A stretch of 64,000 bases of DNA from a virus. The position numbers and the translations under genes are program-made. Positions 18,878 to 63,402 of this stretch are shown here, piece by piece (the stretch's first letter is position 1; each line of letters opens with the position of its first letter). The stretch is taken from IMG/VR virus record IMGVR_UViG_3300043567_001187, positions 30,486 to 94,485 of that record; one strand, given 5' to 3'. Below the pieces are notes generated by a model that ran no database searches, was not told where the DNA came from, and worked only from the letters and a program-made list of their open reading frames with translations.

Positions 18878-19800
18878 AAATAATCCTCAAAACCGTAGGA
18901 AGGAAGTTTTTGTACAGGAAAACCGTCAAAATTGCTAAAAACATAAGCAGCATTGCCACTTAACATACCAGAGGCAACATCAGCAGTAATTAAAAATGAT
19001 CCGTCTGGAATAGGACCCCATTCTGGATGACCACCACTATTCCACTTGCCCCAACTATTTTGTACTAAAAATGCTGGTTCTTTACCTGTGTCGTCACAGG
19101 CTATCCATGCCATAGCATGAGCCCATTGTCCTTGTGGCTTTGCAAATCCCTTTTTATCTCGTGTGCTACTAAATCCATACATACTACAAACACTAATACC
19201 ATAACCATTAGCAAGAGCATCTCTTGCTTCTTCTATTGTACGGACCAAACTTACTGTTTTAATTTGATGATCATTAGCTAAATCAATGACTTTATCTGGT
19301 AATCCTCGTCCGCCCCATCCTGCTCCTAGACTACCATTATATTTGGTTAAATCTACAACCCCTTTATATTCTTTTCTAACCAATACTCCACCGTGTTTAC
19401 TTACAAATTCTGCCGCTCTGGCACAACTCATGCCTTCACCAGCATGACCTCTAGCTCCATAGACAGCTTCAGTAGCGCCTCGTGCTATCCAACTCTCTCT
19501 ATCATTATGAACATCAATTTCTACTGCTCGTGTAACGTCTATAGCGTTTCTTGTAGAATGGCTTACGCAATCCCCGGTTGTTTGTCTCTCATTATATGGA
19601 TTCTTATCAAACTTATAAACGCTCTTATAAGGAGTACTTAGTTTGCCTTTACCGCTACCGGCTATTCTTCTGCCACCATCACTGAAGTAAGCATATTTAG
19701 ATACTTCCATTAAATGTTCAAAGATATGGGGTTCCCACAAACATCCACCAAAACCATTCTTATATAATTTTAATAAATCTTCTGGAGAATAACGTGGCAT
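18874..19800 (-). CDS. papain-like (C1) cysteine peptidase
   Basis: Q-TTGD-C, WAHAM, VQNSWG. Confidence 0.85.
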   Translation of the reverse strand: MPRYSPEDLLKLYKNGFGGCLWEPHIFEHLMEVSKYAYFSDGGRRIAGSGKGKLSTPYKSVYKFDKNPYNERQTTGDCVSHSTRNAIDVTRAVEIDVHNDRESWIARGATEAVYGARGHAGEGMSCARAAEFVSKHGGVLVRKEYKGVVDLTKYNGSLGAGWGGRGLPDKVIDLANDHQIKTVSLVRTIEEARDALANGYGISVCSMYGFSSTRDKKGFAKPQGQWAHAMAWIACDDTGKEPAFLVQNSWGKWNSGGHPEWGPIPDGSFLITADVASGMLSGNAAYVFSNFDGFPVQKLPSYGFEDYL

Positions 19801-20295
19801 TTATTTACTTCCTTCATTACAGGCCCAGGCTAATGCTTTAAAGCCATCAACAGCTTTAGTTCTTAACTCTGCTGATAATAAAACTTGATCATCTCCAATA
19901 GCAGATACCATAACGTCTTTAGCTTCTTTAGCTAGATTAGCATACTTGTCTTTAATATCTAATCTTAGCATCACACCAGCTAAACTATTAGCCTGACGAA
20001 TTTCTTCAGTATTTTTTACTATCTGATTTTCACCATCTAATGAAACTAAGGTTGATAAATCTAGATAAAGATCCCGTAATCTAAGACTATCATCTTTTGC
20101 TGAAGATCCAAAAGATTTTAATAAAGCTACTAATTCATCGGCTTGTGCTCTAATGTTAGAATCCATAGGAGCGTCTATCACCACACTATTTGTAGGATTA
20201 TTATTAGATGGTATTAATTTAGATAAATCTGGTTTAATTAAACCAACTAGTACCAATAAGGCTCCACAAACTAATAAAATATATTTGAGTTTCAT
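19801..20295 (-). CDS. membrane-anchored hypothetical protein
   Basis: N-terminal hydrophobic segment. Confidence 0.6.
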   Translation of the reverse strand: MKLKYILLVCGALLVLVGLIKPDLSKLIPSNNNPTNSVVIDAPMDSNIRAQADELVALLKSFGSSAKDDSLRLRDLYLDLSTLVSLDGENQIVKNTEEIRQANSLAGVMLRLDIKDKYANLAKEAKDVMVSAIGDDQVLLSAELRTKAVDGFKALAWACNEGSK

Positions 20296-56717: not shown

Positions 56718-57036
56718 TGTCTAACCTATAGAGAGGAATAATTGTGTTAGGATCAAGATGTGGATTTTTTTGGAGTCTTAAATCAAAAAGGTCGCCCTTC
56801 TCATTAATTCTGGCCCAAGCAACTTCTTTATAATCGAGATTTTTAGTAATTTCTTCAACTAAATCTTGATTACAATTAAATAGTTCTTGATAAGAGTCTG
56901 CTAATTTTTGACGCAATCTTTTCAATTCATCTTTAGCATTAAGAATATTAAACTTAGTTAATTTCCAGTGTCCAGTATTAGAGGCATCCTCACAACACTG
57001 AAGAAGATGATCTAGGGGATTAGAATGTTCATTCAT
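56701..57036 (-). CDS. hypothetical protein
   Basis: ORF. Confidence 0.55.
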   Translation of the reverse strand: MNEHSNPLDHLLQCCEDASNTGHWKLTKFNILNAKDELKRLRQKLADSYQELFNCNQDLVEEITKNLDYKEVAWARINEKGDLFDLRLQKNPHLDPNTIIPLYRLDNGSIS

Positions 57037-57050
57037 TTTTCAAACCCTTT

Positions 57051-57056
57051 GGTGTA
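57051..57056 (+). promoter_or_regulatory. GGTGTA putative phage (late) promoter motif upstream of the HNH gene
   Basis: Same hexamer precedes several minus-strand genes; here it switches strand with the gene. Confidence 0.5.
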
Positions 57057-57093
57057 TATCTATTATAGCGTTTACCATACAGGAGTCAAGAGT

Positions 57094-57546
57094 ATGACAA
57101 AAAACTATACAATCCCTTACTTAAAAGTTATAGTCAAAAAATCCAAGTCCATTAGAGAAGTATTATCCAATCTCAATATGGCTACTGCCGGAGGTAATTA
57201 TCAAACCATTAAAAATAAAATTGCTGAATATAATATTGACACTTCTCATTTTACTGGTCAGGCATGGAATAAAGGGAAAAAACTAGGCCCAAAAAGATCA
57301 CTTGATGAATATTTGTCAAATCAAAAACCTATACAAAGTTGGAAACTTAAAAAAAGATTACTAAAGGAAGGATTGTTTGAATCAAAATGCTATAACTGTT
57401 TTAAAGATAGTTGGATGGATAAGCCAATTCCTCTTGAATTACATCATATTGATGGAAACAATACAAATAATAGTCTTTCTAATCTTAGTATATTATGCCC
57501 TAATTGCCATGCCTTAACTGATAATTATCGAGGTAAAAATAAATAG
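57094..57546 (+). CDS. free-standing HNH homing endonuclease
   Basis: CYNC, LELHHIDGNNTNN..NL.ILCPNCH; AGGAG SD; only credible plus-strand gene. Confidence 0.9.
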   Translation: MTKNYTIPYLKVIVKKSKSIREVLSNLNMATAGGNYQTIKNKIAEYNIDTSHFTGQAWNKGKKLGPKRSLDEYLSNQKPIQSWKLKKRLLKEGLFESKCYNCFKDSWMDKPIPLELHHIDGNNTNNSLSNLSILCPNCHALTDNYRGKNK

Positions 57547-57813
57547 GAGTGGTGGGAGTCGAACCCACACTGGACGGATTTTCTTACCACTATAGTTTTC
57601 ACTACCATTTCTGTTTGTGGTCTGGACTTTACCTTAACCATAACTTTCGTTTTAGGTTCCTGCCATCAAGTCTCTACACCTTCATATTTCTATGCTTGGC
57701 TCGGTATTAGCATTTTAAAGCCTTCACCGAATTTGACAGGTTCTACTATAAAGATTTCTCCTTATGCACTCAATTTAATAAGTCCGTTGTCTCTGCCATT
57801 GGACTACACTCCC
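57544..57813 (-). tRNA. trnL: tRNA-Leu(UAA) with group I intron; exons 57780..57813 and 57544..57582
   Basis: Spliced: GGGAGUG UA GUCC AAUGGCA GAGAC A ACGGA CU UAA AA UCCGU CCAGU GUGGG UUCGACU CCCAC CACUCCU A. Confidence 0.92.
57583..57779 (-). mobile_element. group I intron (IC3-like), 197 nt, no ORF
   Basis: U-G splice pair in P1 (ACUU/GAGU), P3 CCUGUC/GGCAGG, P4 UUCGGU/ACCGAG, P7 AGAGACU/AAAGUC, GAAA tetraloops, terminal G. Confidence 0.92.
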
Positions 57814-57815
57814 AT

Positions 57816-57899
57816 AAAACACCCAACTACAACAGTTCTTGATTCGAGGTTGATTATTTTGTGCCTCTCTCATTTAAACTGCTGTAGTCGGAATGTTTT
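57816..57899 (-). ncRNA. long hairpin RNA between the HTH gene and the tRNA
   Basis: CCGACUACAGCAGUU/AACUGUUGUAGUUGG 15-bp stem with minus-strand G-U pairs, plus AAAACA/UGUUUU. Confidence 0.6.
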
Positions 57900-63024: not shown

Positions 63025-63047
63025 TATGGAGATGGTAGGAGTTTAAG

Positions 63048-63402
63048 TGGAGGCGGCGGGTTCTGCCCCCGCGTGTTGTGATATTTCTAATTACATCTTC
63101 TACAAGTTTATTTTATTCATGAGTTAAATTGGATTACAGAATAAACAAGACTAATCCAATCTTACCAACTTCTCTTAACCTACAACCCGTTGGATATTGT
63201 AAGTGCAGAGGGATTTGACGACAGACTTTTGATCGCTACCCTCATTCGCAATCTCAGTCTGTTACTGCCCTTTTTTGTCAGGCAGCAAGTGCTAACTGAT
63301 TTGTGCCAGTTAAAGCATTTGGTAGATTTTTATAGTGGCCTTTCCACCAACCACTACTTGCTAACATAATCTTCTATATCCAATCGATTCTATTTCGCCC
63401 CC
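63048..63402 (-). ncRNA. ssrA: tmRNA, one-piece, 355 nt; tag (A)GTNQLALAA at 63278..63307
   Basis: GGGGGCG/CGCCUCC-A acceptor with G3-U70, P2 helices, pk1 (GUAGUGG/CCACUAU, UUGGUGGA/UCUACCAA), UAACU resume context, ALAA-stop. Confidence 0.92.

Follow-up and report, generated by a model that had tools for sequence, protein, structure and literature searches.

In this work we have analysed a locus of a T4-like freshwater phage at which a tRNA-Leu(UAA) gene is split by a group I intron and abutted by a free-standing HNH endonuclease gene. The locus lies in a 64,000-nucleotide stretch of an IMG/VR virus record, the whole of which is called the window below. The split tRNA gene spans 57813-57544 on the minus strand. 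Its 5' exon (57780..57813; 34 nt, tRNA positions 1-34) comprises the acceptor, the D arm, the 5' half of the anticodon stem and C32, U33 and U34, and it was delimited from the sequence, from ARAGORN with introns allowed and from covariation of the cloverleaf in intron-less homologues. The 3' exon (57544..57582; 39 nt, positions 35-73) supplies A35, A36, A37 and A38, the 3' anticodon stem, the variable loop CCAGU, the T arm, the acceptor and A73, and is supported by the sequence, by ARAGORN run on the spliced sequence and by covariation. The spliced tRNA is 73 nt long, with no CCA encoded at its 3' end. With introns allowed, ARAGORN reported tRNA-Leu(taa) i(36,197), which resolved the false negative of the default run on the whole window, where no tRNA was called. 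The anticodon is UAA because the spliced anticodon loop reads CUUAAAA. A suppressor tRNA was rejected since the anticodon is UAA and not UUA, and the calls 'tRNA-Phe(gaa)', 'Tyr(ata)' and 'Phe(aaa)' which ARAGORN made on split genes were set aside as boundary artefacts of the CUU/AAAA junction. An earlier reading of the letters alone, the first-pass annotation, described the gene as a tRNA-Leu(UAA). It is not a normal class II tRNA-Leu, as the variable loop is just 5 nt and the long variable arm of bacterial class II tRNA-Leu is absent. The short variable loop is common to 19 distinct homologues of 73-75 nt, and in the alignment of the short-arm tRNA homologues UAA, A14, A15, G18, G19, U48 and A73 are invariant. 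A73, and A15:U48 with G18 and G19, are reportedly identity elements for the LeuRS of E. coli. The cloverleaf is 99.7% paired in 19 distinct intron-less homologues, with compensatory changes in 15 of its 20 pairs. This is the sole tRNA gene on the contig, and UUA is the commonest leucine codon of the phage (43% of its Leu codons). As part of the explanation which we consider the best, the tRNA is probably functional, has a class-I shape and reads UUA, and its charging with leucine is predicted.

The intron (57583..57779, minus strand) is a group I intron without an ORF, 197 nt long and of the IC3 tRNA type, identified by Rfam RF00028 and by a covarying P1-P9 fold. It is inserted between U34 and A35 (CUU/AAAA) of the UAA anticodon, as the first-pass annotation had placed it, and the sequence, RF00028 and ARAGORN with introns agree on this. 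In a local search RF00028 scored 61.7 bits (E 6.8e-15), above its gathering score of 50, and model positions 1-253 were fully covered; this again resolved a false negative, the whole-window gathering scan with Rfam having returned a tmRNA alone. On three related loci which do contain the intron, cmscan at E <= 0.01 gave no hit, probably a filter effect. The guide sequence GAGUGC is found at 57771-57766 and the 5' splice site follows U34 (57780), which forms a U.G pair with the G of the guide at 57771. The terminal intron base (57583) is a G, as it is in all 16 aligned introns. Across these 16 phage introns the P1-P9 core with the P3/P7 pseudoknot, 54 pairs in total, has 98.6% of its cells paired and compensatory double changes in 25 of the 54 pairs; none of 500 shuffles matched the real alignment, and slid controls reached 27-41%. 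P1 and P7 are invariant within the set, that is, conserved and without covariation there, and P1 covaries in locus L104, in which the exon GAUUU pairs with a guide GAAUGC. A pairing of the 5' exon with the 3' strand of P7, proposed by RNAalifold, was dropped and the canonical P1/P7 assignment was tested instead. Between short-arm and long-arm tRNA bodies the introns share 84-98% identity.

The HNH endonuclease gene (57094..57546, 150 aa) is located on the plus strand, 37 nt from the 3' end of the intron. It converges on the tRNA gene, and the coordinates confirm that its TAG stop (57544-57546) overlaps the last three tRNA bases, positions 71-73. We assign its start to ATG 57094 and not to 57051 or 57025; an AGGAG-like site is present at 57081-85, and the close homologues, which begin with the same MTKNYTIPYL, back this choice. 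The claim that it is the only plus-strand gene stands for ORFs of at least 90 aa with family support outside longer minus-strand ORFs. The product matches phrog_10822 'HNH endonuclease' at 1.3e-46, and its C-terminal part is a McrA/F-TflIV-like HNH domain (CxxC...HH...N...CPNCH) in which the residues of the catalytic motif and of its flanking CxxC zinc ligands (C99, C102, H118, N130, C135, C138 and H139) are invariant among 17 homologues. Residues 68-149 are 58% identical to F-TflIV of T5/BF23, and the AlphaFold model (pLDDT 85) contains the beta-beta-alpha element. The match to Pfam HNH_3 was 18.9 bits, under the cut-off of 24.8, and PDB searches by sequence and fold gave weak HNH and HTH matches, the best structural ones being McrA and Gme HNH (E 0.03-0.3). 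The N-terminal domain is a three-helix, HTH-like one, for which a Pfam search returned no match. With a dN/dS of 0.07-0.21 (about 0.1), the gene is under purifying selection. A packaging-type HNH was rejected, because the gene has no terminase in its vicinity and belongs to a family linked to the tRNA. The GGTGTA motif which had been noticed in the gene does not exceed the level of chance, with 23 matches compared to 20.9 expected, and it was rejected as a signal (the 8-mer likewise, 4 vs 2.3 expected).

All three elements are held in a variable cassette of 821 bp (57025..57845), at the borders of which similarity to L007, the nearest relative, is lost exactly. The place of the cassette is taken in L007 by 152 bp which contain a tRNA-Leu(UAA) with a long arm and no intron, while the flanks are 96.3% and 98.6% identical. 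Three different locus states exist among phages with 96-97% identical rIIA, and a pre-tRNA identity of 92-93% is seen between phages which share just 62-70% in rIIA; the similarity of the cassette does not follow that of the flanks. Another relative, L115, has lost the HNH gene and keeps a 16-aa remnant of it. Together with the introns shared between different tRNA bodies, these comparisons of sequence indicate that gain, loss and transfer are probably ongoing. The cassette also contains a putative sigma-70-like promoter match on the minus strand (57062..57089; TTGACT, 16 nt, TATAAT; 11/12), found by consensus scan alone, which faces the downstream minus-strand gene 57036-56701. We rejected a prophage next to a bacterial ssrA gene as the origin of this DNA, since it comes from an IMG/VR virus record of 94.5 kb which contains rIIA, a ligase and co-oriented genes.

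The HNH family is not confined to this phage. Of its 32 viral loci in IMG/VR, 31 lie within or next to a tRNA-Leu(UAA) gene, as do about 55 of 80 metagenome loci among the matches listed, and an HNH likewise neighbours tRNA-Leu in the cultured phages slur03, Muenster, PEi20, Arash and S-CRM01. The link of the family to tRNA-Leu(UAA) holds in widely differing phages and also in some bacteria. The candidate loci in IMG/VR and metagenomes number at least 544. The gene always adjoins a tRNA end, at a distance of 0-6 nt where the two are convergent and of 3-80 nt where they share a strand. This constant position would also agree with a target located in the acceptor or the flank. At other loci the same family is encoded within the intron, at the same U34/A35 site, either in sense orientation in the P1 loop (L095, L104, L114) or antisense in the P6 loop (L252 and about 20 others). 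Endonucleases borne by introns home to the junction that lacks the intron, and with family members at this intronic site the HNH most likely targets the anticodon region of the intron-less gene. Hundreds of natural genomes hold at least five arrangements of one nuclease family around a single putative target region of 13 bp: free-standing beside an intron-less tRNA-Leu(UAA), convergent beside an ORF-less intron, or downstream of an intron-plus tRNA in the same orientation, and intronic in the sense or the antisense form. The five arrangements form a natural series for the long-standing question of how a ribozyme and a nuclease gene unite into a mobile intron, and as the proposed target is tiny and well defined, the question can be tested directly by cleavage assays.

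The co-occurrence of intron and HNH across related phages, which had been put forward as a check, was found in syntenic relatives, far above chance and with exceptions in both directions. Among distinct haplotypes of the T4-like clade, those with and without the intron numbered 16/2 when the HNH was present and 3/19 when it was absent (p = 2.8e-6), and the loci ascertained by rIIA only gave 5/0 and 3/19 (p = 7e-4), both by Fisher tests in which shared ancestry is not corrected. The intron occurs without the HNH at L005/6/9, L011/12 and L026. The HNH occurs without the intron at L084, L097 and about 30 same-strand loci, mostly with altered stems; the first-pass annotation had named an HNH beside intron-less alleles as refuting its proposal. 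The pair is therefore not obligate, and part of the association is hitch-hiking, since the two are physically linked. The proposal that the HNH is the homing partner which cuts intron-less alleles is partly supported, by the co-occurrence, by the linkage to tRNA-Leu(UAA) and by the intronic family members, but not in the strict form of an obligate pair.

From the linkage of the family, the distribution of alleles in the T4-like clade and the replacement of the cassette, we consider collaborative homing plausible. The layout for it is present, namely an ORF-less intron and an adjacent free-standing endonuclease gene, and the explanation as a whole, a selfish cassette of tRNA, ribozyme and HNH which homes collaboratively on intron-less alleles, appears to us rather probable, if far from certain. 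How might such a cassette work? Guanosine would attack the group I ribozyme transcript in the anticodon loop after U34, at the U.G pair with GAGUGC, and ligation of the exons after the terminal G would yield an intact tRNA. The HNH gene is transcribed from the other strand, towards the tRNA. In a mixed infection it would most likely bind intron-less tRNA-Leu(UAA) DNA through its N-terminal helix-turn-helix domain and nick or cut within or close to the anticodon stem-loop (GGACTT/AAAATCC). Repair templated by the genome with the HNH would then copy the HNH gene, and co-conversion would also carry the adjoining tRNA allele with the intron. With its site split by the intron, the allele of the phage itself would be immune, and in intron-less carriers a changed anticodon stem would confer the same immunity.

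It may be, on the other hand, that the HNH targets the end, the flank or some other part of tRNA-Leu by 'intron-less homing' and that the intron is an unprotecting passenger, co-converted within about 300 bp. We regard this as possible, though on the whole improbable. The constant position of the gene at the tRNA end would be accounted for, as would the introns without HNH and the HNH genes beside intron-less alleles, some of which are canonical, and intron-free homing endonucleases are known in phage tRNA clusters, e.g. SegB (PMC2330249, PMC13096335) and F-TflI/II/IV. However, the repeated presence of the same family inside the intron is hard to explain in this way unless the insertion site is, or adjoins, the target. 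The states of the alleles also argue against it. In the T4-like clade a naked GGACTTAAAATCC allele is never abutted by a convergent HNH: all 18 HNH-positive alleles are protected and 0 are naked and canonical, while the HNH-negative ones are divided 9 vs 13 (p = 7.6e-5, Fisher, kinship uncorrected), so that the naked canonical stem-loop is seen in 0/18 HNH-positive and 13/22 HNH-negative haplotypes. In the independent metagenome set, non-canonical anticodon stems were found in 21 of the 24 HNH-adjacent intron-less alleles, and the altered stems of most intron-less HNH neighbours fit immunity by target change. The intron-plus alleles for their part are biased to the canonical stem, as GACUU must be kept for guide pairing. 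Naked canonical short alleles are exemplified by L014 and L073, variant stems by L084, L097, L019 and L056. Against collaborative homing, some family members of 50-53% identity lie beside an intron-less canonical GGACTTAAAATCC stem-loop, in the L100/101 and L102-107/111 groups and at L309, L316 and L318, the alleles of L100 and L102 being long-arm ones next to same-strand HNHs; either the site is larger than the core, or the specificity is particular to clades, or self-cleavage is tolerated.

Could the homing have ceased? The nuclease may descend from an intron-encoded ancestor and, with no current homing, be retained because it serves the phage, e.g. by excluding the tRNA regions of competitors or, as shown for SegB, by amplifying segments of the tRNA locus as a counter to defences that target tRNAs. 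The strong purifying selection on the HNH fits a function selected in the phage, SegB amplifies tRNA loci to escape Septu (PMC13096335), and the tRNA in question is the only one on the contig and serves its main leucine codon. The three locus states among phages with nearly identical rIIA, the independence of cassette and flank similarity, the near-identical introns in different tRNA bodies and the HNH remnant in L115 speak against a frozen relic, which we therefore judge unlikely. A non-working tRNA, be it a decaying pseudogene or a tRNA-like processing signal with a degenerate intron remnant, would agree with the missing long variable arm that defines bacterial tRNA-Leu and with the failure of default ARAGORN and the whole-window Rfam scan to see these features, but it is highly improbable in the face of the compensated cloverleaf of the 19 intron-less homologues, the invariant anticodon and identity positions, and an intron core supported by covariation and above the Rfam cut-off.

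The first-pass annotation matched the insertion site to that of the cyanobacterial/plastid trnL(UAA) intron and thought that phages may be a vector for trnL introns. The insertion point, 34/35, is indeed identical, but it is not specific to cyanobacteria and plastids, as many bacterial phyla have it. The class 'Leu.3Ug' was defined in a preprint with 5292 bacterial tRNA introns (Williams 2020), and such introns are common in the tRNA-Leu(UAA) of many bacterial phyla. Our scan of contigs likewise found the same class in tRNA-Leu(UAA) of many bacterial phyla (at least 80 bacterial loci), and the phage intron matches the core pattern that was used to scan for the cellular introns. In the intron tree the phage introns (n=12) form a separate clade with a support of 0.98, the support for the sister group being 0.41 with a bacterial sample of at least 80 loci. 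Since the phage introns form a clade of their own, there is no support for the vector idea. The cellular intron resembles ours in the insertion point CUU/AAAA and in its IC3-type core, and in its classical forms it is regarded as ORF-less; the plastid trnL anticodon stem-loop, too, presumably matches the GGACUU/AAAAUCC found here. It differs in length (212-254 nt in the bacterial examples sampled, compared to 197 nt), in belonging outside the phage-carried clade, in the tRNA body, which lacks the long variable arm here, and in that the phage introns are partnered with or carry an HNH gene. Perhaps the HNH family, by cutting the anticodon stem-loop DNA where tRNA-Leu(UAA) genes lack the intron, is the missing homing engine of the ancient trnL(UAA) intron in phages and bacteria alike, with phages holding, reshuffling and seeding the intron across phyla and with short-arm tRNAs escaping nucleases directed at the long arm. 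We consider this unlikely; if true, phage seeding in free-standing, sense-intronic and antisense-intronic forms would explain the patchy distribution of the intron in cells.

A 2014 review of bacterial group I introns (PMC3984707) notes that every phage intron seen until then was located in a protein-coding gene, although phage tRNA genes are numerous. In our literature searches neither a group I intron of a phage tRNA-Leu gene nor its partnership with an HNH was found described. Default tRNA finders undercount phage tRNAs by missing such split genes; in the Atu_ph07 copy the region is annotated with 'hypothetical protein' CDSs alone, and LR756501 has no annotation whatever. Devoto et al. (bioRxiv 10.1101/356790) observed 'enigmatic introns' in tRNAs of Lak megaphages and knew of no earlier report. 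These are also introns in phage-encoded tRNA genes, but they interrupt tRNA-Phe, Gly, Thr and Tyr, were not classed as group I and are without an associated nuclease. Examples of collaborative homing are the cyanophage psbA intron with F-CphI and the nrdA/nrdB genes of Aeromonas phage Aeh1 with MobE (Zeng et al. 2009, Bonocora & Shub 2009, as reviewed in PMC3984707). As in those systems, the elements described here are polymorphic for presence and absence among related phages, and in some relatives the intron itself contains the same nuclease family, as would be predicted for the end-product of that pathway. In contrast to them, the host gene encodes a tRNA instead of a protein, the nuclease, an HTH plus McrA-like HNH protein of small size, has a gene which is convergent and overlaps the last 3 nt, cleavage would be expected at the insertion site, and the pair is separable in nature. 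I-Ssp6803I is a nuclease of the PD-(D/E)XK family, unlike the HNH. It is the homing endonuclease of a bacterial tRNA group I intron, in cyanobacterial tRNA-fMet, and its recognition site is the anticodon region of the tRNA gene without the intron (Bonocora & Shub 2001, cited in PMC3984707). That tRNA is a different one, however, and the enzyme is intron-encoded in a cellular genome, not free-standing in a phage. The genes of SegB of T4 (GIY-YIG) and F-TflI/II/IV of T5/BF23 (HNH) are, like ours, wedged among phage tRNA genes, and such enzymes are site-specific cutters which drive the preferential inheritance of tRNA regions (PMC2330249). The neighbours of SegB show no preference of tRNA isotype (PMC13096335), and F-TflIV sits by tRNA-Ile/Ser, whereas the family described here has its own N-terminal domain and is tied to tRNA-Leu(UAA) and its intron.

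We confirmed that the window holds a tRNA-Leu(UAA) gene split by an intron and adjoined by an HNH gene. The tRNA gene lies on the minus strand (57813-57544), with exon 1 at 57813-57780, an intervening sequence of 197 nt at 57779-57583 and exon 2 at 57582-57544. The 5' exon ends in GGACUU and the 3' exon starts with AAAAUCC, so the mature anticodon loop would be CUUAAAA and the anticodon UAA. The internal guide GAGUGC (57771-57766, minus strand) pairs its G with the last U of the 5' exon, and the last base of the intron is G (57583); this anatomy bears out the insertion between U34 and A35 proposed in the first-pass annotation. The HNH ORF of 150 aa runs on the plus strand from an ATG at 57094, preceded at 8 nt by an AGGAG-like site, to a TAG at 57544-57546. 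It converges on the tRNA and its stop shares the last three bases of that gene. The GGTGTA motif which had been ascribed to the HNH gene occurs at chance level. The IMG/VR virus record is 94.5 kb long and has an estimated completeness of 68%; the window is its final 64 kb. The phage has a G+C content of about 33%, nearly all genes in the window are on the minus strand and, since rIIA and an ATP-dependent DNA ligase are among them, the phage is T4-like. A near-consensus (11/12) match to a sigma-70-type promoter (57062-57089, minus strand) lies in the cassette, directly in front of the following minus-strand gene; this predicted promoter may restore transcription of the downstream genes past the oppositely oriented HNH gene.

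The intron was missed by an Rfam scan of the whole window, in which the tmRNA was the sole match. That tmRNA gene, one-piece and full-length (63045-63402, minus strand; RF00023 at 77.9 bits, cut-off 47), was not called by ARAGORN. A local Rfam search scored Intron_gpI at 61.7 bits (E 6.8e-15), above the cut-off of 50, and a repeat reproduced the result. We then aligned 16 distinct phage introns of the same type on the canonical group I fold, which comprises P1, P2, P3-P8 with the P3/P7 pseudoknot, P9 and P9a (54 pairs). Standard pairs filled 98.6% of cells and 25 of the 54 pairs showed compensatory double changes, values attained by none of 500 shuffles; sliding the partner columns by 1-3 reduced pairing to 27-41%. 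P1 and P7 did not vary within this set, and covariation in P1 was seen at locus L104, where the exon has GAUUU opposite the guide GAAUGC. Pairing and covariation argue that the intron RNA is a structurally constrained ribozyme and not a relic, and we infer that it splices.

Several comparisons bear on the mobility of the cassette. The introns are 84-98% identical across short-arm and long-arm tRNA bodies, and the window pre-tRNA shares 92-93% identity with its counterparts in phages that have 62-70% identity in rIIA. Among the closest relatives (rIIA 96-97% identical) the locus exists in three states. In one relative, L007, the flanks are 96.3% and 98.6% identical to the window; the tRNA, intron and HNH, which take up 821 bp of the window (57845-57025), are missing from it, and 152 bp containing an intron-less long-arm tRNA-Leu(UAA) are found instead. 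In L084 the 3' exon and HNH segment is 92.5% identical to the window, the other flank only 75%. Do the intron and the HNH travel together? Among loci found through rIIA, a sample unbiased with respect to the HNH, we counted five distinct haplotypes with both, three with the intron only, none with the HNH only and 19 with neither (Fisher p = 7e-4, in a test that ignores shared ancestry and physical linkage). When convergent loci found through the HNH were added, the intron was present or absent in 16 and 2 HNH-plus haplotypes vs 3 and 19 HNH-minus ones (p = 2.8e-6, with the same disregard of ancestry and linkage). The co-occurrence expected across related phages was thus found. HNH genes beside intron-less alleles, which the first-pass annotation would have taken as evidence against its proposal, were also found, and the observations agree that intron and HNH are a separable pair.

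The intron-plus alleles all read GGACTT|AAAATCC or, rarely, AGACTT|AAAATCT. The convergent HNH-plus alleles without intron are two, L084 and L097, and both have altered anticodon stems (GGCACTTAAAATGCC and AAAACTTAAAATTTT, respectively). The stem is also altered in L115, whose HNH is reduced to a 16-aa remnant; this 16-codon stretch, identical to the HNH C-terminus and adjoining an intron-less variant-stem tRNA(UAA) (L115:3678-3798), looks like a trace left by an HNH gene since lost. If alleles with either the intron or an altered stem are taken as protected, HNH-plus haplotypes comprise 18 protected and 0 naked alleles and HNH-minus haplotypes 9 and 13 (p = 7.6e-5). The pattern was repeated in an independent metagenome sample (80 loci kept of 544 candidates), where the stem was non-canonical in 21 of the 24 tRNA-Leu(UAA) alleles that lacked the intron and lay next to an HNH. 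Counter-examples with the HNH beside canonical naked alleles are two same-strand IMG/VR lineages (L100/101 and L102-107/111) and the loci L309, L316 and L318. We consider a collaborative-homing cassette the best reading, and a reasonably probable one. In tRNA-Leu(UAA) genes that lack the intron, the HNH would recognise DNA at or close to the anticodon stem-loop, repair would copy the HNH and carry along the intron-containing tRNA allele by co-conversion, and the carrier would be protected by its intron or altered stem. Could the target instead be the end or flank of the tRNA gene, with the intron a mere hitch-hiker? This main rival has perhaps a modest chance of being right; the altered stems and the cassette replacement favour a target in the anticodon region. 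The earlier interpretation is, overall, partly supported.

The HNH ORF matches PHROG 10822 'HNH endonuclease' (1.3e-46) and is conserved over its full length in 17 homologues, including CxxC, HH, N and CPNCH. Its AlphaFold model (pLDDT 85) consists of an N-terminal three-helix bundle, a linker and a beta-beta-alpha HNH; matches in the PDB were weak (McrA, Gme HNH and small HTH domains). Within three sub-clades pairwise dN/dS is 0.07-0.21, so selection maintains the protein. The family is found at tRNA-Leu(UAA) in 31 of 32 IMG/VR loci (the exception is L109), in about 55 of the 80 retained metagenome loci and in cultured phages, namely T-even coliphages such as slur03, Klebsiella Muenster and Edwardsiella PEi20. 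Intronic members sit in the tRNA-Leu(UAA) intron at the same insertion site as the window's intron. Sense copies occupy the P1 loop, and their final codons run into the guide sequence (L095 on a 393-kb contig, L104 and L114). Antisense copies occupy the P6 loop in L252 (L252:1301-2078, contig Ga0209992_10000025, 244 kb) and some 20 other metagenome loci among L243-L322, the commonest intron-plus arrangement in that sample of 80. On bacterial MAG contigs, the HNH is intronic in Arcicella (L160) and, in Saprospiraceae (L172), convergent and adjoining an ORF-less intron. The HNH tree places the convergent T4-like forms in a single clade, where L084 and L097 branch among intron-plus neighbours, and disperses the intronic forms among free-standing ones, which implies repeated moves into or out of the intron. 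That the nuclease is domesticated or frozen is unlikely.

By default ARAGORN reported no tRNA in the window; with introns allowed it called tRNA-Leu(taa), interrupted by an intron of 197 nt, as the sole tRNA of the contig. The spliced tRNA has 73 nt and A73, CCA is not encoded, and the variable loop of only 5 nt is unexpected for tRNA-Leu. That it is a dead tRNA seems very improbable: related phages have 19 distinct intron-less homologues, 73-75 nt long, which preserve the cloverleaf with 99.7% of cells paired and compensatory changes at 15 of 20 pairs, and which retain UAA, A14, A15, G18, G19, U48 and A73. Identity for E. coli LeuRS resides in A73 and the A15:U48 tertiary pair, the long arm being dispensable, and from these elements leucine charging of the short-arm tRNA is plausible. 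UUA is the top leucine codon of the phage (43% of Leu, 36 per 1000 codons). At the same locus, other clade members have tRNA-Leu(UAA) genes with the normal long arm, 83-86 nt in length. Class-I-shaped tRNA(UAA) genes (73-75 nt, variable loop of 5 nt in place of the long arm characteristic of bacterial tRNA-Leu) are conserved, with compensatory changes, in dozens of T4-like phage contigs (for example L014:4828-4901 and L073:2416-2490). HNH homologues adjoin short 75-nt tRNA-Leu genes with anticodon CAA in Synechococcus phage S-CRM01 (L121:1250-1839) and UAG, followed by tRNA-Leu(UAA), in Salmonella phage Arash (L120:1336-1823); short-arm tRNA-Leu genes thus extend beyond the UAA isoacceptor and beyond uncultured phages. 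Because Septu cuts tRNA-Tyr at its long variable loop (PMC13096335), one might speculate that loss of the arm is an escape from Septu-like defences.

Group I introns between U34 and A35 are classical in cyanobacteria and plastids. The site is indeed theirs, but it is not a cyanobacterial signature, since among the matches listed the intron core also lies in tRNA-Leu(UAA) of Proteobacteria, Acidobacteria, Bacteroidota, Chloroflexi and others. The idea that phages are a vector for trnL introns is unsupported: in a tree with the bacterial introns among these matches, the 12 phage introns group apart as one clade (support 0.98), for which the tree gives no well-supported sister group. Williams 2020 counted 5292 group I introns of 21 types, found them widespread in the tRNA genes of bacteria, and suspected archaeal-labelled cases, like the IC3-type group I introns in tRNA-Asn(GUU) on two contigs labelled Candidatus Pacearchaeota archaeon (L130, L146), to be mis-binned bacterial scaffolds. 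Long-arm tRNA-Leu(UAA) genes with ORF-less group I introns at the same site are also present in two jumbo phages, in Agrobacterium phage Atu_ph07 (MF403008.1, ~112890-113251; L002:2461-2822; intron 278 nt), where the tRNA is unannotated and only 'hypothetical protein' CDSs are given, one overlapping the gene end, and in the uncultured 735-kb phage LR756501.1 (L001:2491-2781; intron 205 nt), a record with no annotation whatever. In Pelagibacter phage HTVC120P (MH598807.1, ~19653-19807; L003:2501-2655) a core about 75% identical to the window intron lies between the adjacent CDSs gp29 and gp30; as each is annotated 'capsid protein', a related intron seems to interrupt the major capsid gene.

Our literature search found no description of a phage tRNA-Leu group I intron or its HNH partner. 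The phage introns known to a 2014 review were all in protein genes (PMC3984707), and unclassified tRNA introns of Lak megaphages were called unprecedented (bioRxiv 10.1101/356790). The present case is relevant to the fields of mobile introns and phage tRNAs. F-TflIV of T5/BF23 is 58% identical to the window HNH over residues 68-149; it sits by tRNA-Ile/Ser and lacks the N-terminal domain. SegB-type nucleases have no isotype preference (PMC13096335), whereas the HNH family is linked to tRNA-Leu(UAA). Collaborative homing has been established in protein genes, examples being the cyanophage psbA intron and Aeh1 nrdA/nrdB with MobE (PMC3984707); the host gene studied here is a tRNA gene.
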